The notes under the pieces are model-generated. The model searched no databases. It was not told the DNA's origin and was given only the letters and a program-made list of their open reading frames with translations. From an uncultured Candidatus Saccharibacteria bacterium (lineage in GTDB: Bacteria; Patescibacteriota; Minisyncoccia; Phycocordibacterales; Zambryskibacteraceae), in assembly GCA_964618905.1 (NCBI GenBank), contig CAZUDK010000001.1, positions 13,982-77,981 on the forward strand: a DNA stretch of 64,000 bases, written 5' to 3'. The position numbers and the translations under genes were made by a program. This document shows, one piece after another, positions 1-54,194 of the stretch (its first letter is position 1; the number at the start of each line of letters is the position of its first letter).

Positions 1-10
1 TTATGATCTT

Positions 11-12912: not shown

Positions 12913-13734
12913 TTATATTAGAAATTCGATAACATCTCCATCTTGAACAATGTATTCTTTGCCTTCAGTTCGTATCCAGCCTTTCTCGCGCGCGGCCGCG
13001 CGCGAGCCAGCTTCCAAAAACTTGTCGTAGTGAATTACCTCTGCCCGAATAAATTTATCCTGAAAGTCTGAGTGAATAGACTTACCTGCTTCTGGAGCAG
13101 TTGCGCCTCTCTTAGTAGTCCAAGCTCTGCTCTCTTTTTCTCCAGTAGTAAAGAAAGTTATAAGATCGAGAAGTTTATAGGATTCAAGAATCAACTTATC
13201 AAGACCTGTACCGAAAACCGGATCGACTTCTATAAAAGGTCCAGGAATCTTTTCTTTGAATTCCGGTGAAATCTGCCCTGACACTTCCGAGACATTCAGC
13301 ACGTAAAGAGTAGGTTTCTGTATGCCAGCTTTCTCAAGTTCGAGATTAATGATTTCTATGTCGAAGAGTGGATCAACTTTGTTATGTACATGGATGATGT
13401 CAGAGTCTTCAAACGTACGAACCATCATAATGATTGCATCCACCTCTCTTATATGCGAAAGGAATTTATTTCCGAGACCTTCGCCTTCTGCTGCGCCGCG
13501 CACCAAGCCGGCAATATCTACAAACTCAACAACAGCAGGAATTTTCTGCTTTGACTTACTCATGTCAGAGAGCTTATCGAGCCTCTCGTCTGGCACCGGC
13601 ACAATACCAACAGACGGATCTATGGTGCAGAACGGATAGTTCTCCGCCGGCACTTCTTTCTTTGTAAGTGCATTAAAAAGCGTGGACTTCCCCACATTCG
13701 GCAAACCGACGATTCCGACAGTCAATTTAGACAT
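12913..13734 (-). CDS. ychF: Ribosome-binding ATPase YchF, short 273-aa form
   Basis: GLPNVGKST is the G1 motif and DIAGLV is G3. The NVSE motif is present. A C-terminal TGS domain is present. The helical insert is shortened. Confidence 0.85.
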
Positions 13735-32515: not shown

Positions 32516-34053
32516 ACACTCCTTCAACAAAACCAAAAGCAATAATCTATATTCGCGTCTCATCGGATGAGCAATATGAGGGCACGAGTCCAGGATTCCA
32601 ACGGAAAGAATGTTTGAGATACTGCGAGCAGAGAGGTTTTGATGTTGTTGCGGAGTTTGAAGAACCAGAATCAGCAAAGGATTTGTCTTTGAATAACCGA
32701 AAAGAATTGTTGCGTTCAATTGAGTTTTGTCGAAAACATAAAAATCAAATCCAAGCGTTTGTGGTATTACGCGTCAACCGCTTTGCTCGTAATACAGAAG
32801 ACCACTTTATTATCCGTAAAAAATTACTCTCTTACGGAACGACCTTGCACTCTGTTACAGAACCTATCGGAAATAAGCCGATTGAGAAACTCGTAGAAAC
32901 AGTTGCAGCTGCTTCTGCTGATTATGAGAATGCCATTCGAAAGCAACAATGCTCCGATGGTATGAGTGAAAAAATCAATCAAGGTATCTATCCTTGGAAA
33001 CCACCATTGGGTTATGCATGCGGTCAGTTCAAAAAACGTGGTCTGAAAAAGACAGAAGCCGATAAGCCAGACACTGTGCGTTTTCGCTTTATTCAACAGC
33101 TCTTGAAAAAATGTCTTGAGGAGAAAATCAAAAGTAATGTCGAACTCGCTAAACTGCAAAAAATTGATGAGATTTTTTCAAACAAGTTTTACGCAGGCAT
33201 TATCGTCAATCCGTTCACAGGTAAAGAGGTTGAGGGAAAACATGAACGAATGATTACGCCAGAAGAGTTCAACCAGATTCAACTTATCCGCAAAGGCAAG
33301 GCGCCAGTCATTATCAAGAAGAAACTAAAAAATCATCCTCATTTTCCACTAACACGGGATATGAAGTGCGTATGTAGTGTGGGCATGAGTGGCAGTCACC
33401 CCCGTGGAAATGGAGGTGTATATTCTTACTACCATTGCCACAACAGGGATTGTCCGCTTTATTGCAAGAACATACCTGCTGATAAAGTGCACTCTGATTT
33501 TCTGGCGTGGCTTGGAGGAGTAACACCAAAGCAAGAGTTTCTCGACCTATTCCGTGAGATTGTGATTGATGTCTGGCGCAACAATACTTCACTGCTTGAA
33601 GATGCTATCAAACAACAACAAAAGGAGCTTGAGGAGCTGCGACAAAAGAAGTTTGAATATGTTGAGCTAATTCGTAAGGGCACTATCAGTGAGGACTTTG
33701 GTAAAGAAGTTATTGAGCAGACAGATAACGAAATTGCAGCAAAACAAATCACTATCCGTGAGAATCACTTGGATAAGCTCGATATCGAAACCGCAGTATC
33801 CTACGCCACCAACTTTATTTCAGACCTTCCACGCACCTGGATGGATTTGGACATTGACGCAAAAAAGCGGTTCCAAAAACTCGTTCTTCCCGAAGGAATC
33901 GTGTACGATAAAAACAACGGATTTGGAACCGCCAAACTGGGCTTTATTTACGAGATGAATCAGCAACTTGTTGCTGAAAAATCAGATTTGGTGGACCCTA
34001 CCGGATTCGAACCGGTGACCTCCTCATTGCAAATGAGGCGCTCTACCAACTAA
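32512..34053 (+). CDS. Large serine recombinase (resolvase catalytic domain plus recombinase and zinc-ribbon domains)
   Basis: AIIYIRVSSDEQ carries the catalytic Ser. A Cys-rich ribbon (CVCSVG...YYHCHNRDCPLYC) is present. The start overlaps the tyrosine recombinase stop as ATGA. The last roughly 20 codons read through tRNA-Ala. Confidence 0.8.
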   Translation: MNTPSTKPKAIIYIRVSSDEQYEGTSPGFQRKECLRYCEQRGFDVVAEFEEPESAKDLSLNNRKELLRSIEFCRKHKNQIQAFVVLRVNRFARNTEDHFIIRKKLLSYGTTLHSVTEPIGNKPIEKLVETVAAASADYENAIRKQQCSDGMSEKINQGIYPWKPPLGYACGQFKKRGLKKTEADKPDTVRFRFIQQLLKKCLEEKIKSNVELAKLQKIDEIFSNKFYAGIIVNPFTGKEVEGKHERMITPEEFNQIQLIRKGKAPVIIKKKLKNHPHFPLTRDMKCVCSVGMSGSHPRGNGGVYSYYHCHNRDCPLYCKNIPADKVHSDFLAWLGGVTPKQEFLDLFREIVIDVWRNNTSLLEDAIKQQQKELEELRQKKFEYVELIRKGTISEDFGKEVIEQTDNEIAAKQITIRENHLDKLDIETAVSYATNFISDLPRTWMDLDIDAKKRFQKLVLPEGIVYDKNNGFGTAKLGFIYEMNQQLVAEKSDLVDPTGFEPVTSSLQMRRSTN

Positions 34054-34064
34054 GCTAAGGGCCC
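33989..34064 (-). tRNA. tRNA-Ala(UGC)
   Basis: Folded by hand. The acceptor is GGGCCCU/AGGGUCC with a G3:U70 pair. The anticodon loop is UUUGCAA. The T-loop is UUCGAAU. The discriminator is A and CCA is encoded. Confidence 0.85.
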
Positions 34065-34122
34065 AATAAAAGGAAAGTATAGTAGACAAGCAGGGAAAAA
34101 TCAATCAAAATATCGGCCAATA

Positions 34123-34196
34123 GGGCCTATAGTATAGTAGTAACACACGTCCATGGCATGGACGAGTCCGGGGTGCGATTCCCCGTAGGTCCACCA
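34123..34196 (+). tRNA. tRNA-Ala(GGC)
   Basis: The acceptor is GGGCCUA/UAGGUCC with G3:U70. The anticodon loop is AUGGCAU. The T-stem is CGGGG/CCCCG. CCA is encoded. It is divergent from tRNA-Ala(UGC) across a shared 58-bp region. Confidence 0.8.
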
Positions 34197-36422: not shown

Positions 36423-37643
36423 TTATATCCGAAATCCTTTCCCGCGCAACCGTCTGTGGTACCCAATAGCAAAGCGATGCGCCTCGGCATTGGCAAGAAG
36501 TATTGCTCTGACATGATTCTTAATATGCATTTTAGAACCGACAACTTCACGAGCTTTATGTCTCTGGTCTTTAACCACTGCAGCAATCCCTATATGGAAA
36601 CCTTCTTTATCTAAAACTTCTTTGGCTGCCGCCATCTGAGCTTTGCCGCCATCTACTACGATAAGATTCGGCATAGGCCATTCTGGATGCGTAAGTCTGC
36701 GGCTTATGACTTCTTTAAGATTGGCTATATCATTGTTCTTATCTGTTTTTATTTTAAATTTTCTGTACTGACTTTTGGCAAGTTCTCCATCTTCCACCAC
36801 AGTCATCACTCCAACTGCGTTCGAGCCGGAAAGATGCGCAATGTCATAAGCTTCAATCCGAAAAGTTATTTCTCCTGCATCTTTTTCTATGTCTTTTTTC
36901 AAGAGAGCAATATCTTGTATATGATCAAGAGAAAATATCTGTCTCTTCACTTTCTCTGCTTCCTCAAATTTTTGTTCTTTAGCCAAAGACTTCATTTCTT
37001 TTTCCAGAGAAGTTATAAGTTTGGTTTTCTTGCCTTCGAAAAATAAGACGAGGTGACGAATAATCTTGTTGTAATCTTTCTTTGATATCCAGCCAGCGCA
37101 CGGACCGGGACAGAGCCCTATCTGAGCATTAAAGCAAGGCCTGCCGGTGAGCTTGCATTTCTCATCTCTGAAAGGAAAGATCTTGCGGATTATCTTGAGA
37201 GCCTCGCGCAACTCGGTACCTTTAGGGAACGGTCCAAATACCCTGCGAGGTTCAACCTTGTAGCCTTTTTCTAATTCCCTGCCCCGCACTAAAAGAACCC
37301 GTGGAAAATCCTCTCGGGTTATAACCACATAGTTGTAGCTCCTGTCATCTTTTTCCTTGGTATTGCCTCGCGGTTTGTACTTGCGAATCTCGTTAGCTTC
37401 AAGAATAAGCGCTTCCAAGACTGAATCTGTTTTTTTATATGCAACCTTCTCTGTTTCGAGGATAACCTTCTCTATGATAGGACCTCTGGTGCGAAAAATA
37501 TTGCCATTAAAATAGCTTCTGACTCTATCTTTGAGGCTTGTAGCCTTGCCTATATAGAGAATCTTGCCTTTTTTATCCAGGAAGTAATACACTCCCGGAG
37601 AATCAGGAATATTAAATTTCTTTAAATCTGTCGAATTCATCAA
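36423..37643 (-). CDS. uvrC: Excinuclease ABC subunit C, lacking the C-terminal (HhH)2 domain
   Basis: GVYYFLDKKGKILYIGKA is the GIY-YIG motif. A UvrBC-interaction helix is present. The RNase H-like domain IEAYDIAHLSG is present. It ends at 406 aa. Confidence 0.85.
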   Translation of the reverse strand: MMNSTDLKKFNIPDSPGVYYFLDKKGKILYIGKATSLKDRVRSYFNGNIFRTRGPIIEKVILETEKVAYKKTDSVLEALILEANEIRKYKPRGNTKEKDDRSYNYVVITREDFPRVLLVRGRELEKGYKVEPRRVFGPFPKGTELREALKIIRKIFPFRDEKCKLTGRPCFNAQIGLCPGPCAGWISKKDYNKIIRHLVLFFEGKKTKLITSLEKEMKSLAKEQKFEEAEKVKRQIFSLDHIQDIALLKKDIEKDAGEITFRIEAYDIAHLSGSNAVGVMTVVEDGELAKSQYRKFKIKTDKNNDIANLKEVISRRLTHPEWPMPNLIVVDGGKAQMAAAKEVLDKEGFHIGIAAVVKDQRHKAREVVGSKMHIKNHVRAILLANAEAHRFAIGYHRRLRGKGFRI

Positions 37644-37650
37644 TTTCTAA

Positions 37651-40380
37651 TTACCTCTTCTTTAAAACTCTGCGAAGATAAGTGCCGGTATGAGTATCCG
37701 TATTCGCAACTTCTTCCGGCGTACCTTTAGCCACCAACTTACCGCCTCCGACACCGCCTTCAGGACCAATATCAAGAATATAATCAGCACTTTTTACCAA
37801 GTCGAGATTATGCTCTATTACCAGAACTGTATTACCCTTATCCACGAGCTTCTGCAATATCTCTATAAGCTTTTTTACATCCTCATAATGCAGACCAATA
37901 GTAGGCTCATCGAGAAGATAAATAGTTTTCTGCAAATGCGGACGGTACAATTCCGATGCAATCTTTACGCGCTGAGCTTCCCCACCGGAAAGAGTTGTTG
38001 CAGACTGACCAAGCTTCAAGTAACCGAGCCCGACGTCACTGAGTGTTCTAAGCCTGTCATATATAGCAGGTATGTCTTCAAAAAATCCGAGAGCGTCTTC
38101 TACTGTCATCTCCAAGACATCATATATGGACTTTTGTTTGTATTTGACTTCAAGAGTATCTTTCATGAATCTCTTACCACCACAGACGTCACAAGGCACA
38201 TAAACTGTCGGCAAAAAGTGCATCTCCACAGCAATCTGTCCTGCTCCCTGGCAAGTCTCACATCTTCCACCTTTAACATTGAAAGAAAATCTAGAAGGCT
38301 TCCAGCCGCGAGCTCGAGCTTCTGAAGTTTCGGCAAACAATTCCCTGATGAAAGTGAAGGCTCCGGTATACGTTGCCGGGTTTGATCGAGGTGTCCTGCC
38401 TATCGGCGACTGATCTATCAAGATGGTCCGGCCTAGATACTCAGAACCGTCAAAACTCTGAGCGTTAAAAGTCTGAGCGCTCCTATGCTTCCTATCAAGC
38501 CGCGCCTGAAGATTCTTGTAGAGAATTTCATAGACAAATGACGATTTGCCGGAACCTGATACGCCTGTGACAACCACGAACTTGCCGAGCGGAATATCAA
38601 CATTGAACTTGTCTATATTGAATATCTTACCTCCCCTGATCTTAATACTTCCTTTATCTGATGTTCTTCTTGTCTCTGGTACATCAATCTTCTCTTCACC
38701 GCGCAAGTAAGAGAGGGTCAGCGAATTACTTTTGTTTTCTTTGGCTGTCAGAAGTGGCTCCAGAAAATCTGCCACCACCACTTCTCCGCCGTGACGACCT
38801 GCGCCTGGACCGATATCTACGATGTAGTCCGCAGAATAGATAGTGTCTTCATCGTGTTCTACCACTATGATGGTATTGCCAAGATCACGGAGATTTAAAA
38901 GAGTCTTTATAAGCCGGTCATTGTCTCTCTGATGCAAGCCGATGGTAGGCTCATCGAGCACATACAGCGCTCCGACAAGTCCGGAACCGAGCTGGCTGGC
39001 TAATCGTATGCGCTGAGCTTCACCACCGGAGAGAGTATGAGCGCGCCTGTCGAGCGACAAATATTCTATGCCGACATTGAGCATAAACTTTAGCCTCGAT
39101 TCTATTTCTTTGACAACCACTTTAGAAATATTCTTTTCTCTGTCTGAGAGTTTCAGCTTCTTTAGAAATTGATCTGCATCTTTTATAGAAAGCGCCGTGA
39201 ACTGGACTATGTTTTTACCACCGATTAGGACATTGAGTGCTTCTTCTCTCAAACGATCTCCGTTGCATTTCGGGCAAGGCTCTGTACCAAAAAGATACTT
39301 GGTGCCAAGGCCGTTACATTCCGGACAGGCTCCATACGGCGAGTTGAAAGAGAAGAGTCTTGGCTCTATGTCTGGAAATGAAAAGCCGTCCCGCGGGCAT
39401 GACCACTTTGCCGAAAGCAAGTGCTCTTGTTCATCTTCAGCATCCTTCTTCGCCTTTTTTCCGTCTGAGGTATCCCTAAAGCGAAGCACAAGCAATCCTT
39501 CAGATTCTTCAATGGCTTTTTCTATAGATTCGGATAATCTCTCGTCTGCGGTCTTCGGGTCTGTTTTGAATTCATCAATGCTTATAGCATCCACCAGCAC
39601 GGAGATTTCATGTTTCTTTGTCTTTGTCAGAGCTATTCTCTCTCGCAAAGACTTGCGCTGACCATCCACTAAAACTTCGCTGTATCCTTTGCCTAATAAA
39701 TCATAAAGAAGCTGGTAATACTCACCCTTCCTGCCGCGCACTATCGGCGAAAATATTTCGGCATATACCGGCAGAGGCAAATCTTTCTTTGGCAGTGATG
39801 CAGCTTTTTCGTTTATTTTTTCTAAGACGAAATTTTTTATTTCTTCGTTTGAGAGCTTTTGGATTTCATTGCCGCAAACCAGACAATGCGGGCGACCAAT
39901 GCGTGCAAACAAGATACGAAGATAATCATTTATCTCTGTGATAGTAGCCACGGTGGAACGCGGATTGTTGGAACGAGATTTTTGATCTATTGAAATAGCC
40001 GGAGAGAGGCCGATGATTTCATCGACATCAGGCTTTTGCATCTGGTTTAAAAATTGACGCGCATAAGAAGAGAGAGATTCTACATACCTCCTCTGCCCTT
40101 CTGCGAAAATCGTATCGAATGCCAGAGATGATTTGCCAGAACCTGATAAGCCGGTAATGGCTATCATTTTGTCGCGCGGCATCCGCACAGTGATATTTTT
40201 CAAATTATGCGTTCTTGCCCCACGCACTTCAATATACTCACCTTCCTTAAGGTTGCTTGCCCCGTAGGGAGCTTGCTCTCCTTTGGGGTGAGTGCGGGCA
40301 CCTTTAACAATTATCTTGCCTGCGCCGCTATCCTTCTGCGGTTTTTCGCTCTGTTTGTTTTCTTCTTTTTTCTTTGCCAT
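37651..40380 (-). CDS. uvrA: Excinuclease ABC subunit A
   Basis: Two ABC ATPase modules (GLSGSGKSSLAF and GVSGSGKSS), zinc-finger cysteines and LSGGEAQR signatures. Confidence 0.95.
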   Translation of the reverse strand: MAKKKEENKQSEKPQKDSGAGKIIVKGARTHPKGEQAPYGASNLKEGEYIEVRGARTHNLKNITVRMPRDKMIAITGLSGSGKSSLAFDTIFAEGQRRYVESLSSYARQFLNQMQKPDVDEIIGLSPAISIDQKSRSNNPRSTVATITEINDYLRILFARIGRPHCLVCGNEIQKLSNEEIKNFVLEKINEKAASLPKKDLPLPVYAEIFSPIVRGRKGEYYQLLYDLLGKGYSEVLVDGQRKSLRERIALTKTKKHEISVLVDAISIDEFKTDPKTADERLSESIEKAIEESEGLLVLRFRDTSDGKKAKKDAEDEQEHLLSAKWSCPRDGFSFPDIEPRLFSFNSPYGACPECNGLGTKYLFGTEPCPKCNGDRLREEALNVLIGGKNIVQFTALSIKDADQFLKKLKLSDREKNISKVVVKEIESRLKFMLNVGIEYLSLDRRAHTLSGGEAQRIRLASQLGSGLVGALYVLDEPTIGLHQRDNDRLIKTLLNLRDLGNTIIVVEHDEDTIYSADYIVDIGPGAGRHGGEVVVADFLEPLLTAKENKSNSLTLSYLRGEEKIDVPETRRTSDKGSIKIRGGKIFNIDKFNVDIPLGKFVVVTGVSGSGKSSFVYEILYKNLQARLDRKHRSAQTFNAQSFDGSEYLGRTILIDQSPIGRTPRSNPATYTGAFTFIRELFAETSEARARGWKPSRFSFNVKGGRCETCQGAGQIAVEMHFLPTVYVPCDVCGGKRFMKDTLEVKYKQKSIYDVLEMTVEDALGFFEDIPAIYDRLRTLSDVGLGYLKLGQSATTLSGGEAQRVKIASELYRPHLQKTIYLLDEPTIGLHYEDVKKLIEILQKLVDKGNTVLVIEHNLDLVKSADYILDIGPEGGVGGGKLVAKGTPEEVANTDTHTGTYLRRVLKKR

Positions 40381-45044: not shown

Positions 45045-45074
45045 GCCGGGCCACATTGTGGCCCGGCTTTTTGC
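45045..45074 (+). terminator. Rho-independent terminator
   Basis: gccgggccac-att-gtggcccggc is followed by tttttgc. Confidence 0.6.
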
Positions 45075-51286: not shown

Positions 51287-51297
51287 GATATGAACAG

Positions 51298-51318
51298 CCC
51301 CGCGCCGTAGGCGCGGGG
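51298..51318. terminator. GC hairpin ccccgcgcc-gta-ggcgcgggg
   Basis: It lies between the convergent SET gene and the 51327..51572 ORF. The U-run is weak. Confidence 0.4.
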
Positions 51319-51326
51319 CATTCTGT

Positions 51327-52235: not shown

Positions 52236-52424
52236 ATGCCAGCACGATCTAAAAAACAGCAGATGGCTGCCGGAGCAGCTCTCTCAGCTAAGCGAGGAGA
52301 AATAAAAGAAAGCGAACTTCAGGGTGCATCTAAAGAGATGTACGAATCCATGACGGAAGAAGAACTTGAGGAACTTGCCAGCACGAAACGTGAAGACTTG
52401 CCGGACGAAGTGGAAGGAGATTAA
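52236..52424 (+). CDS. Small acidic hypothetical protein
   Basis: A 62-aa ORF directly followed by a terminator. Confidence 0.4.
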   Translation: MPARSKKQQMAAGAALSAKRGEIKESELQGASKEMYESMTEEELEELASTKREDLPDEVEGD

Positions 52425-52431
52425 AAAGAAA

Positions 52432-52464
52432 CAGCGGCTCTGCTCTAGCAGGGCCGCTGTTTTA
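52432..52464. terminator. Bidirectional terminator hairpin
   Basis: cagcggc...gccgctg is followed by tttt on the plus strand, with an A-run upstream. Confidence 0.55.
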
Positions 52465-52474
52465 ACATCCAGCA

Positions 52475-52723
52475 CTACAATAAATGAAAGTGTAGATACT
52501 GCAAGAACATCTGGTTGAAAGACCAGTAAGCGAGGGCGGTAAAAATATCCTCCTCTGTTAGGAACAGAGTTGCCTTGAATGCGTTGTAGCAGTAAGGACA
52601 CTGAATTACCACGATCCTTCCGACATCCTCTATTCCATGGATGACTCTCAGATTTTTGTGGCAGTGCGTACATCTGAAGGCTTGTAAACGTTCCACTTTT
52701 TTCCTCCTTGCTTGAGTGAACAC
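52475..52723 (-). CDS. Zinc-ribbon protein
   Basis: CTHCHKN...CPYCYN. Confidence 0.4.
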   Translation of the reverse strand: MFTQARRKKVERLQAFRCTHCHKNLRVIHGIEDVGRIVVIQCPYCYNAFKATLFLTEEDIFTALAYWSFNQMFLQYLHFHLL

Positions 52724-52781
52724 CTCTGTCGCCTAAAATACCATAATTTTCAAGAAAAGGAAGATCTTTCTATGGAGCCAC

Positions 52782-53075
52782 TTACCAAGCTTTGTATATC
52801 TCACGAGAGCCGGAAACATACATCTCGTTAATGTCTTTGAACTGCTCGGCCATTTCCCTATTCTCCTTTGTATCCTTCATCTCTTCTTCCCTGTTTTTCT
52901 CATAAGCAATCAAATCATCATATTGGCTCACTATAATTACCCGATGCCACTGGCCGGTTATATCTGTCATGATGTTGAGAACTCCAGGTTTATCACCCAT
53001 GGCTTCCTTGAAACGCTTGGCCAATTTACCGGCATTGCCCGGCTTACAAACAAAAGTGTCGTGAACTATTATCAT
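52782..53075 (-). CDS. Hypothetical protein
   Basis: A 97-aa ORF with no recognised motifs. Confidence 0.35.
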   Translation of the reverse strand: MIIVHDTFVCKPGNAGKLAKRFKEAMGDKPGVLNIMTDITGQWHRVIIVSQYDDLIAYEKNREEEMKDTKENREMAEQFKDINEMYVSGSREIYKAW

Positions 53076-53152
53076 GTGATTTTAAAATTAGCTAATCATC
53101 ATATTGTAGACGAAAAAAACAAGTTAACCATACTCTGATTAATTAATGAGTA

Positions 53153-53185
53153 AGTAAAAATCCCAATGCTTGCGCATCGGGATTT
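53153..53185 (-). terminator. Terminator downstream of tRNA-Asn
   Basis: aaatcccaatgc-ttgc-gcatcgggattt with one mismatch, followed by a U-run on the minus strand. Confidence 0.55.
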
Positions 53186-53194
53186 AACTTTCTC

Positions 53195-53270
53195 TGGCTC
53201 CGCGACCAGGGCTCGAACCTGGGACATCCTCGTTAACAGCGAGGCGCTCTACCGACTGAGCTATCGCGGA
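53195..53270 (-). tRNA. tRNA-Asn(GUU)
   Basis: The acceptor is UCCGCGA/UCGCGGA. The anticodon loop is CUGUUAA. The T-loop is UUCGAGC. The discriminator is G and CCA is encoded. It closely resembles canonical bacterial tRNA-Asn. Confidence 0.85.
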
Positions 53271-53515
53271 ATATTATTTTTCAGAATCTCTCCTCTAAGC
53301 TCCCTCCCTTCTCCGGTTTTGAAAAACTTTTCCCTACATCGTGCTTCACCTAAAGTAGAGAACTTCTCTGTATAAACCAACGTGAGAGGTCTACGGCCTT
53401 TAGTTGGTTTAACATGACCAGAATTATGTTCTCGTAATCTTCGAGACACATCTTTCGCAAGACCAACATAGAAACCGTTATCTTTTTTGCTTTGCAGTAT
53501 GTAAACAAAGTACAT
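53261..53515 (-). CDS. Stand-alone GIY-YIG nuclease domain protein
   Basis: MYFVYILQSKKDNGFYVGLAKDVSRRLREHN is the GIY-YIG motif. Its last three codons and the TAG stop are supplied by the 5' end of tRNA-Asn. Confidence 0.7.
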   Translation of the reverse strand: MYFVYILQSKKDNGFYVGLAKDVSRRLREHNSGHVKPTKGRRPLTLVYTEKFSTLGEARCREKFFKTGEGRELRGEILKNNIPR

Positions 53516-53529
53516 ACTATTATTCTACA

Positions 53530-53575
53530 CTCTACCGACTGAGCCCTGCCTGCCGGCAGGCGGGTATCGCGGAAT
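53530..53575 (-). pseudogene. Duplicated 5' half of tRNA-Asn (acceptor 5' strand plus D-arm) interrupted by a 20-nt palindromic insertion
   Basis: ctctaccgactgagc + [cctgcctgccggcaggcggg] + tatcgcggaat are identical to tRNA-Asn positions at 53247-53272 apart from the insertion. There is no anticodon, T-arm or 3' half. Confidence 0.6.
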
Positions 53576-53645
53576 GAAAAAATAATAACAGAAAAAAGCT
53601 CAAAATCAACCGCATGAATATGAAGTCACCTGTTATAATACTGAT

Positions 53646-54194
53646 ATGAAAAAAGCTGTTGTAGTAATAATAGTTCTAGCTGCTCTGGGTCTGGTCTATT
53701 CTCTAAGCAATAATCCGTCAAAAGTAACCAATGTTTCCAACAATAATGAAAGTTCTTCCGTAAAACCCGACCCTTCAAACGCGACCTTTATTTTTGAAGA
53801 TGGTCCGATAACCTTGTCTGGCGGCAAGACAACAATAGACATAGAAGGTTCTTCTGTTCTAAAAGAAGATGTGAGCCTTTGGGGTAACTTTATCGCTTAC
53901 GGAGATATAAATAGTGACAAAAAAGAAGATGCAGCGGTCATCATCACCCGTACAGGCGGCGGATCAGGCTTCTTCATATATGTAGCTCCTTTCTACTCCA
54001 AAGCAGGTTCATACAAAGGCGGTAATGCTGTATTTCTAGGTGATAGAGTGGCTCCAAAGGATATTTCAATAGCTGATGGCATTTTAACAGTGGAATACAT
54101 GGACAGAGCTGAAGGAGAACCTATGGCCGCCGAACCCACAGTGCTAAAGTCAGAACAATTTAAAATCAAAAACGGAATACTGGAGAAATTATAA
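53646..54194 (+). CDS. Secreted or lipoprotein-like hypothetical protein
   Basis: The signal peptide is MKKAVVVIIVLAALGLVYS. Confidence 0.5.
   Translation: MKKAVVVIIVLAALGLVYSLSNNPSKVTNVSNNNESSSVKPDPSNATFIFEDGPITLSGGKTTIDIEGSSVLKEDVSLWGNFIAYGDINSDKKEDAAVIITRTGGGSGFFIYVAPFYSKAGSYKGGNAVFLGDRVAPKDISIADGILTVEYMDRAEGEPMAAEPTVLKSEQFKIKNGILEKL

Follow-up and report, generated by a model that had tools for sequence, protein, structure and literature searches.

Organization of the tRNA-Asn locus

We analyzed a 64,000-nucleotide (nt) stretch of DNA from an uncultured Candidatus Saccharibacteria bacterium (contig CAZUDK010000001.1 of assembly GCA_964618905.1; this whole stretch is referred to as the window), in which a small gene for a GIY-YIG nuclease is located next to a tRNA-Asn gene. 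The gene is part of a cassette of approx. 305 bp that separates tRNA-Asn from its promoter, lies in the same orientation as the tRNA and has neither a promoter nor a stop codon of its own. Both flanks of the cassette consist of sequence from the same tRNA, i.e., one flank is the intact tRNA gene and the other is a 5' fragment (referred to as the pseudo-tRNA) that is split by a GC-rich palindrome. The original prediction, which was made from the sequence alone, had given the minus-strand order as a partial tRNA-Asn copy, an open reading frame (ORF) encoding a GIY-YIG protein of 84 amino acids (aa) and a complete tRNA-Asn. Every one of these elements was recovered where it had been placed; the distance between the partial copy and the ATG start codon, given as 15 nt, had to be corrected to 14 nt. 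The features of the locus, in the direction of transcription, are:

53582..53609, minus strand: sigma-70-like promoter, TTGATT-16 nt-TG-n-TATTAT (motif ttctgttattat)
53565..53575, minus strand: left arm of the pseudo-tRNA, ATTCCGCGATA, corresponding to tRNA-Asn positions -2..9 (5' acceptor strand, U8 and A9); exact 11-nt direct repeat of 53262-53272
53545..53564, minus strand: GC-rich 20-nt near-palindrome, CCCGCCTGCCGGCAGGCAGG, with the core hairpin CCTGCC-GGCA-GGCAGG, precisely between tRNA positions 9 and 10
53530..53544, minus strand: right arm of the pseudo-tRNA, GCTCAGTCGGTAGAG, corresponding to tRNA-Asn positions 10-24 (D-arm); exact 15-nt direct repeat of 53247-53261
53516..53529, minus strand: AT-rich 14-nt spacer ahead of the start codon, tgtagaataatagt, diverged among relatives
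53261..53515, minus strand: ORF of the 84-aa catalytic-domain-only GIY-YIG nuclease (Pfam PF01541, E = 2.3e-14)
53195..53270, minus strand: intact tRNA-Asn(GTT) with encoded CCA, the functional copy (ARAGORN; Rfam, 69.7 bits)
53153..53185, minus strand: terminator-like hairpin (inverted repeat AAATCCCGATGC/GCATTGGGATTT) plus T run at the end of the transcription unit; not called by a terminator scan with stricter criteria

The ORF ends in the codons ATT CCG CGA TAG, its last 10 nt being positions 1-10 of tRNA-Asn, and its TAG stop codon (53263..53261) is formed by U8-A9-G10 of the tRNA, as had been predicted. The two arm repeats are collinear, with spacings of 303 and 283 nt and thus an offset of exactly 20 nt. 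The expectation that the partial copy would be identical to the tRNA except for an inserted palindrome held for both repeats, which are exact, but the duplication additionally takes in 2 nt upstream of the tRNA. Similarly, the insertion itself is exact but its palindromy is not perfect, as the 20-mer forms 9 of 10 pairs and only the core CCTGCC-N4-GGCAGG is perfect.

As the promoter motif directly abuts an uninterrupted tRNA-Asn gene at the empty loci L093/L096 and at locus L136 (see below), the sigma-70-like promoter at 53582..53609 represents the native tRNA-Asn promoter, which would now drive the pseudo-tRNA, the ORF and the tRNA. Rfam matches in the window at gathering thresholds were limited to three tRNAs, with no family found over the leader or the palindrome, and no intron family was matched in the window; the ORF is located upstream of an uninterrupted tRNA and not inside a group I or group II intron. 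Folding of the leader RNA (53575..53500) yielded a z-score of -0.69, with the local hairpin as the sole structure. The GIY-YIG gene is the only ORF of the inserted approx. 305 bp, i.e., the element encodes no tyrosine or serine recombinase.

Characteristics of the GIY-YIG protein

The 84-aa protein matched PF01541 over residues 1-67 (53.9 bits versus a cutoff of 22.6), which places it in the GIY-YIG superfamily, and residues Y5, Y16, G18, R26, H30 and E62 were invariant in 23 relatives. By analogy with I-TevI and UvrC, we take these motif residues (the GIY Tyr, the YIG Tyr-x-Gly, Arg, His and Glu) to have catalytic or metal-binding roles. An AlphaFold2 model (predicted local distance difference test score, pLDDT, of 92.7) showed the order beta-beta-alpha-alpha-beta-alpha-alpha and the GIY-YIG fold. 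Foldseek matched this model best to 1zg2, followed by Slx1 (template modeling (TM) scores of 0.64-0.69) and, more weakly, the catalytic domain of I-TevI; superposition on Slx1 gave a TM score of 0.69 and a root-mean-square deviation of 1.5 Å, with 32% identity over 74 columns. The best sequence matches were likewise to UPF0213 proteins, i.e., 1zg2 (BH0048; E = 1.3e-18) and 1ywl (EF2693; E = 2.8e-18), and then to the nuclease domain of SLX1 (E = 1e-6). With a single domain in the size range of ~80-110 aa and UPF0213 as its best profile, the protein belongs with UPF0213/YhbQ.

The catalytic domain fills residues 1 to about 81 of 84 and there is no C-terminal DNA-binding domain; the model for group I intron endonucleases (TIGR01453) scored 21.9 bits, below its cutoff of 56. 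Overall, sequence profiles and the structural model indicate that the nuclease is a catalytic-domain-only protein of the SLX1/UPF0213 branch and not a classical two-domain homing endonuclease. No match was found among PHROG families, and an exact-protein lookup for the ORF returned nothing on record. Assignment to a defence system was rejected, as PADLOC gave only marginal PDC-S14 matches (E = 0.0025-0.004; 14-15 bits). The family as a whole falls into 6,891 clusters (50% identity; E <= 1e-3), 714 of which reach E <= 1e-10; almost all members have 80-140 aa.

Gene callers often start family ORFs upstream, such that the pseudo-tRNA and the palindrome are translated (protein P0010, for example, contains '...CLPAGRAG...'). 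These upstream start calls appear to have left spurious N-terminal extensions in databases, where many representatives have 100-140 aa and match from residue 20-55 onwards. The window contains one other GIY-YIG match, i.e., a UvrC-like gene (406 aa, N-terminal GIY-YIG) just downstream of uvrA (909 aa) at 36423-40380 on the minus strand. A second tblastn match at ~37.4 kb, considered as a possible cassette copy, was rejected because it is this unrelated N-terminal GIY-YIG domain of the UvrC-like protein.

Recurrence of the cassette across genomes

A scan of one genome per GTDB species identified at least 550 relatives, of which the best 80 loci were analyzed together with other fetched loci, giving a family sample of 103 small GIY-YIG genes from about 100 loci. 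The closest homologues (71-78% identical) are found in metagenome-assembled genomes (MAGs) of Patescibacteria, where they show the same layout at their own tRNA-Asn genes; they carry the perfect palindrome CCTGCCTGCCGGCAGGCAGG between positions 9 and 10, and the arms follow the local tRNA even where it differs from that of the window. The original prediction had called for a search for further copies, and palindrome and gene were indeed found together in other genomes, each time at tRNA genes.

Among the 103 genes, 68 have a tRNA called on the same strand within 120 nt, and 55 have a pseudo-copy of the same tRNA on the other side of the ORF (upstream in 43 and, as a mirror architecture, downstream in 12). 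The pseudo-copy is interrupted by a GC-rich hairpin-forming insert in nearly all cases. In more than 30 loci this hairpin is a pure insertion, the arms being contiguous in tRNA coordinates; in the tRNA-Cys clade the arms are non-contiguous, with positions 37-55 replaced. The tRNA supplies the ORF with its stop codon, either at U8-A9-G10 or in the D-loop, in more than 20 loci. Some loci without a called tRNA hold tRNA fragments in their flanks. At three further loci the tRNA just downstream of the cassette contains a group I intron (L006:2713-3046, L007:3199-3448 and L024:2647-2883; Rfam RF00028, 74-90 bits), which explains why ARAGORN missed these tRNAs. Tandem arrays of units consisting of an ORF and a tRNA-like sequence occur at four loci (L008, L016, L072 and L078).

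Partner tRNAs represent at least 14 isotypes, and the hosts include Patescibacteria, Bacteroidota, Ignavibacteriota, Chlorobiota, Calditrichota, Omnitrophota, Planctomycetota and others; Melioribacter and Flavobacterium tiangeerense are among the carriers (L016, L020 and L046). Protein clades, as assigned by clustering by identity rather than by full phylogeny, correspond to the isotype of the tRNA and to the family and position of the hairpin, irrespective of the host phylum, i.e., they are incongruent with the hosts in the manner of homing endonuclease genes. For example, one clade is associated with tRNA-Cys in Ignavibacteriota, Bacteroidota, Calditrichota and a lineage of the candidate phyla radiation.

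Conservation of the palindrome

A single core palindrome is present in the window, compared with an expected number of 0.04. The 20-mer of the window is identical at 19 of 20 positions to the perfect palindrome of L001, L002, L006, L007 and L129 and represents the most conserved block of the alignment. In pairwise comparisons of the window, L001 and L002, the proportion of synonymous differences (pS) was 0.68-0.86, i.e., saturated, and that of nonsynonymous differences (pN) was about 0.17, which indicates that the protein is under purifying selection and that the lineages are old. Over the same comparisons, 19-20 of 20 palindrome nucleotides are identical, the insertion point is unchanged and each pair of arms still agrees with the tRNA beside it, in contrast to the 14-nt spacer, which has diverged. 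Retention of the palindrome and of matching arms despite saturated synonymous sites indicates that the palindrome is a selected component of the cassette and not a product of decay.

Nearly all of the 61 inserts collected from the family fold as hairpins, and 32 of them contain both CCYGCC and GGCRGG (0.18 expected). Stems show compensatory changes, e.g., CCTGCC/GGCAGG to CCTGTC/GACAGG and CCCGCC/GGCGGG to CCCGTC/GACGGG. Asymmetric hairpins occur in either orientation relative to the ORF (window versus L029), and the inner part of the L092 hairpin is the reverse complement of the hairpin in L086, L088 and L089, with its loop being that of the L086 loop. Moreover, the hairpin is found inside the pseudo-tRNA throughout, whether this lies 5' of the ORF or, as in the mirror architecture, 3' of it. 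This independence of orientation and side favors a symmetric, purely structural or otherwise DNA-level role. A terminator or translational operator was rejected in view of the lack of a T run, the occurrence of both orientations and the placement either 5' or 3' of the ORF. An adapter or linker artefact was likewise rejected, in view of natural variants and compensatory changes across independent assemblies; the palindrome also corresponds to no adapter or linker known to us.

Exact copies of CCTGCCTGCCGGCAGGCAGG were also found in 35 stretches of viral or proviral contigs from IMG/VR (L098-L132), mostly GC-rich and without a GIY-YIG gene nearby. Such solo palindromes (e.g., L106:8396, L100:1660, L116:3391 and the four copies in L118) are in some cases abutted by direct repeats of 7, 8 or 14 nt. 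At L122:2239-2330, the exact 20-nt palindrome is inserted in the variable loop of a tRNA-Met (AGG|PAL|TC) that still scores 50 bits as a tRNA, and L099:8616-8635 shows the same insertion combined with loss of the T-arm; the flanks fetched for the two loci contained no detectable GIY-YIG gene. Phage origin of the cassette was rejected, as no relatives of the protein were found in IMG/VR and none among PHROG families, and as L129 is the only canonical cassette among the 35 viral stretches with the palindrome.

Other long GC-rich perfect or near-perfect palindromes are found in the window (43.5% GC) at 12985-13006, 2234-2261, 45045-45067 and 51297-51319; one of these is the 22-nt CTCGCGCGCGGCCGCGCGCGAG. 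This group does not contain CCYGCC and may represent terminators or another repeat class.

Occupied and empty tRNA-Asn loci

The original prediction had proposed a comparison of related tRNA-Asn loci with regard to presence or absence of the GIY-YIG gene, and both states were found. When metagenomes were scanned with the 3' 55 nt of the window tRNA-Asn, i.e., its non-duplicated part, 13 loci were identified, including four distinct empty sites (L085, L090, L093/L096 and L095). Locus L136, a relative with a neighbor gene matching that of the window, is probably a syntenic empty site, in which the tRNA is visible as uninterrupted up to position 28, where the contig ends. A cassette of the window type is present at the site in the window, L001 and L002. 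Homologous tRNA-Asn sites thus show the presence/absence polymorphism that is characteristic of homing endonuclease genes.

In addition to being empty or filled, the site can hold unrelated cassettes. An unrelated GIY-YIG clade (type B), with its hairpin at position 7/8 and an ATG that abuts the D-arm copy, fills L086, L088 and L089. In L001 (2620-3324), two different cassettes are stacked before one tRNA-Asn, each with its own hairpin-split fragment; in the fragment of the upstream cassette, the hairpin is longer and imperfect and interrupts the tRNA sequence at about position 3/4. Locus L092 carries a remnant without an ORF ~100 nt upstream of tRNA-Asn, i.e., tRNA positions 1-7, a hairpin, positions 8-23 and 32 nt, followed by the intact tRNA. 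L088 (type B) and L001 (window type) agree in their downstream flank but in neither cassette nor upstream flank.

The D-loop allele of the working tRNA was GGCA in 9 of 9 loci derived from type B and in 0 of 6 others, counts that refer to loci that are not phylogenetically independent; L088 and L001 differ in this allele despite their common downstream flank. This linkage between allele and cassette type suggests co-conversion or a 5' part of the working tRNA that is carried by the cassette. Overall, these comparisons support the earlier proposal that a GIY-YIG cassette inserted at tRNA-Asn and that the tRNA was kept by means of a 5' fragment; of the two variants left open in that proposal (target duplication or a carried fragment), the allele that travels with the cassette type favors the carried fragment.

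Proposed mechanism

Taken together, we consider it reasonably probable, on comparative sequence evidence, that the locus is a minimal selfish cassette of the homing type that targets tRNA genes and that belongs to a large family of tRNA-nested mini GIY-YIG elements. Under this hypothesis, the cassette would be co-transcribed as part of the pre-tRNA, and the nuclease would be translated solely from the unprocessed precursor, as cleavage by RNase P would remove the stop codon and leave a non-stop mRNA; expression would thus stay low. The SLX1/UPF0213-like nuclease would break or nick the cognate tRNA gene where this is unoccupied, and recombinational repair off the occupied allele would copy the cassette. 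As the two tRNA-derived flanks would act as portable homology arms in any genome, no conservation outside the tRNA would be needed. The working tRNA would obtain the 5' part carried by the cassette, with the resident 5' part left behind as the pseudo-tRNA. The palindrome would be a selected cis element that, being orientation-independent, most likely acts at the DNA level; it may prevent the redundant tRNA copy from being cut or recombined with loss of the ORF, or it may be a structure recognized by a nuclease of the structure-specific type.

Comparison with known systems

The functionally closest known system is SegB of phages T4 and T6, a free-standing GIY-YIG homing endonuclease encoded in tRNA gene clusters (PMC2330249; PMC13096335). 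SegB recognizes and cuts tRNA genes at a site that includes the T-psi-C motif, and the tRNA region next to its gene is co-converted as it homes (PMC2330249; PMC13096335). A statistical association with tRNAs of many isotypes has been found, and segments containing tRNA genes and segB are duplicated by recombination in a nuclease-dependent manner (PMC2330249; PMC13096335). By analogy, SegB provides a precedent for most of the homing steps proposed above, and in both cases a GIY-YIG gene is embedded among tRNA genes. However, SegB has about 220 aa and C-terminal DNA-binding modules, whereas the protein studied here is a catalytic domain of 84 aa that belongs to the UPF0213/SLX1 branch and scores below the TIGR01453 cutoff. 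In addition, segB belongs to phages and carries expression signals of its own, whereas the window cassette is chromosomal, is found in cellular bacteria and lacks a promoter and stop codon, and relatives of its protein were not found in the viral contigs of IMG/VR. A pseudo-tRNA split by a palindrome has not been described for SegB.

With UPF0213/YhbQ proteins (1zg2, BH0048; 1ywl, EF2693), the window protein shares single-domain size and fold. Both structures are named just 'Hypothetical UPF0213 protein' in the PDB, and the literature searched, the coverage of which was incomplete, described no link between these proteins and tRNA genes or mobility. SLX1 is the closest characterized relative and, according to the titles of PDB entries 6seh and 7cq4, cuts branched and flap DNA and is not sequence-specific. 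A conserved site that can form a hairpin or cruciform would fit a nuclease with SLX1-like properties. SLX1 also has a wider range of substrates. It differs from the window protein in that it has a RING/PHD domain, needs SLX4 and is a eukaryotic repair enzyme rather than part of a mobile element.

Islands and prophages that integrate into tRNA genes (attL/attR) resemble the cassette in that the insert lies between an intact tRNA and a partial direct copy, with tRNA function preserved. However, such islands extend over kilobases, encode an integrase and usually duplicate the 3' end, whereas the cassette has ~300 bp, no recombinase and a leftover copy with a conserved hairpin, and it is usually the 5' end that is duplicated in its family. 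Free-standing endonuclease genes of T4-like phages are known to home collaboratively with group I introns; a nuclease gene beside an intron-interrupted tRNA is similarly found in L006, L007 and L024, but the tRNA-Asn of the window and most family loci contain no intron. Finally, short GC-rich palindromic mobile repeats include the GC clusters of yeast mitochondria and repetitive extragenic palindromic (REP)-like elements. The 20-nt palindrome resembles these where it occurs solo in unrelated GC-rich contigs, at times with short direct repeats and once in the variable loop of a tRNA-Met. In contrast, it is single copy in the AT-rich genome of the window, is strictly tied to the cassette and is not accompanied by a transposase of the REP-associated tyrosine transposase (RAYT) type.

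Alternative explanations

Several observations count against a selfish homing cassette. Support for cleavage and for mobility is entirely comparative, and an 84-aa catalytic domain without a DNA-binding domain has no known means of recognizing a specific tRNA gene. The occupied chromosome retains an intact presumed target, as tRNA-Asn is located 250 nt from the palindrome-disrupted copy, whereas self-immunity of a homing element would call for a disrupted or altered target in the carrier. For approx. 15-20 of the 103 family genes, no association with a tRNA was found, and the lack of relatives of the window protein among 2.9 million viral contigs (IMG/VR) leaves cross-phylum transfer without an apparent vehicle. 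The nearest cassette is only 78% identical in protein, which gives no sign of very recent movement of the window copy. Lastly, the solo copies of the palindrome indicate that it may be an independent short palindromic mobile repeat. One alternative is that the arrangement arose by chance and decay, i.e., that the upstream copy of a tandem tRNA-Asn pair was overwritten by an unrelated ORF and a random palindrome, or that it represents an assembly chimera; both possibilities had been raised in the original prediction. Tandem tRNA genes are common, and contigs often break at the tRNA-Asn locus. However, a Logan assembly obtained independently for the same genome (L133) agrees with the window at every one of the 424 shared nt (53222-53645), i.e., across the whole cassette, which makes chimerism unlikely. 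Chance is excluded by the recurrence, in independent assemblies, of the same architecture with the perfect palindrome in the same position and by the low expected number of core palindromes in the window, and an overwritten tandem pair would not account for a position-conserved palindrome amid saturated synonymous sites. We thus regard this explanation as effectively refuted.

Three other explanations were considered, each of which we regard as improbable. A domesticated or host-beneficial module, in which the protein serves in repair or amplification of tRNA genes, in countering toxins or phages that target tRNA, or in control of pre-tRNA output, with the pseudo-fragment as a regulatory leader, seems unlikely. 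It would agree with strong purifying selection on the protein, with the tandem arrays of ORF and tRNA-like units and with the benefit that nucleases of the SegB type can bring to their carrier when they amplify tRNA genes (PMC13096335). Known defence families gave no match, though, and the occurrence at one and the same tRNA is patchy (empty, replaced by unrelated clades, stacked or reduced to remnants without an ORF), with clades that cross phyla; this patchy, replaceable, stackable and cross-phylum pattern is typical of selfish elements and fits a host function poorly. Slightly more doubtful is guided targeting, in which the pseudo-tRNA would be a cis-encoded guide rather than a remnant and the hairpin a handle, as DNA or RNA, for the nuclease; the arms would pair with the complementary strand of the cognate tRNA gene, and the resulting three-way junction would be cut at the arm junction by the SLX1-like nuclease. 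Such a mechanism would suit a protein that has no DNA-binding domain and whose closest characterized relative, SLX1, acts on branched DNA, and it would agree with the pure insertions between contiguous arms, with the retention of arms and hairpin at saturated synonymous divergence and with arms that match the local tRNA whatever its isotype. However, the match between arms and tRNA is equally explained by homing or gene conversion, the arms of the tRNA-Cys clade are not contiguous, and the leader RNA forms only the local hairpin. Asymmetric hairpins in both orientations (window versus L029; L092 versus L086) are awkward for a sequence-specific RNA handle, and there is no precedent for a guided GIY-YIG enzyme. 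The least probable of the three, in our view, is a micro-island, i.e., a small circular or linear DNA consisting of the ORF, the palindrome and a tRNA segment that was integrated in the 5' region of the tRNA by homologous or site-specific recombination of the host, without a direct role for the GIY-YIG protein. A circle of the order [palindrome][positions 10-24][ORF][positions -2..9], recombining with tRNA positions 1-9, would yield exactly the order observed, and partial direct repeats of a tRNA that flank an insert are a hallmark of tRNA-integrating islands. Conversely, no integrase or recombinase is found in or adjoining the cassette, RecA recombination would not be efficient with repeats as short as 9-25 nt, and a constant GIY-YIG passenger under purifying selection would be left unexplained.

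Novelty and implications

It is already known, from phage SegB, that GIY-YIG homing endonucleases associate with and cut tRNA genes. In the full-text literature searched, the coverage of which was incomplete, the only related papers were those on SegB, and no description of the cassette architecture was found. A chromosomal, cross-phylum family of ~300-bp cassettes, the presence in tRNA-nested cassettes of a catalytic-domain-only nuclease of the UPF0213/SLX1 branch, the seamless nesting in a pre-tRNA transcription unit and the conserved, selected palindrome that splits a pseudo-copy of the target all appear to be new. The original prediction had been made without sight of three of these aspects, i.e., the conservation and selection of the palindrome, the very large size of the family with its many isotypes and phyla, and the UPF0213/SLX1-branch, catalytic-domain-only nature of the nuclease.

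If autonomous, an element of ~300 bp with a nuclease of 80-90 aa would lie far below every insertion sequence and classical homing endonuclease gene in size, and the cassettes would illustrate how a selfish gene can borrow its promoter, stop codon and homology arms from an essential tRNA gene. Members of the family are currently annotated as 'GIY-YIG nuclease family protein' or 'putative endonuclease' without a role, and the isotype-specific association with tRNA gives proteins of the UPF0213/YhbQ type a testable function. The palindrome with its target-matching arms is an obvious candidate for the source of specificity, with possible value as a small programmable nuclease. Should guided targeting be correct, specificity would reside in nucleic acid; no autonomous mobile element smaller than these cassettes would be known, and their nucleases would be the first guided enzymes of the GIY-YIG type. 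The cassettes also affect annotation, as they give rise to fragmentary tRNA genes, to ORFs called with too long an N terminus and to contigs that break at the tRNA loci of MAGs.

Other tRNA genes and neighboring genes

Elsewhere in the window (33989-34196), a divergent pair of tRNA-Ala genes (TGC on the minus strand and GGC on the plus strand) is separated by 58 nt, and neither gene has a cassette or pseudo-fragment. The genes that neighbor the tRNA-Asn locus encode a NIPSNAP-like protein and a 182-aa protein without a Pfam family match. In relatives (L136 and the context of P0024), a gene for a 61-aa membrane protein separates the homologue of the 182-aa gene from the tRNA-Asn promoter; this membrane protein gene is absent from the corresponding region of the window (52236-53646), where the NIPSNAP-like gene lies beyond the tRNA. 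As flanks vary widely among otherwise similar loci, the tRNA-Asn locus has the appearance of a rearrangement hot spot.

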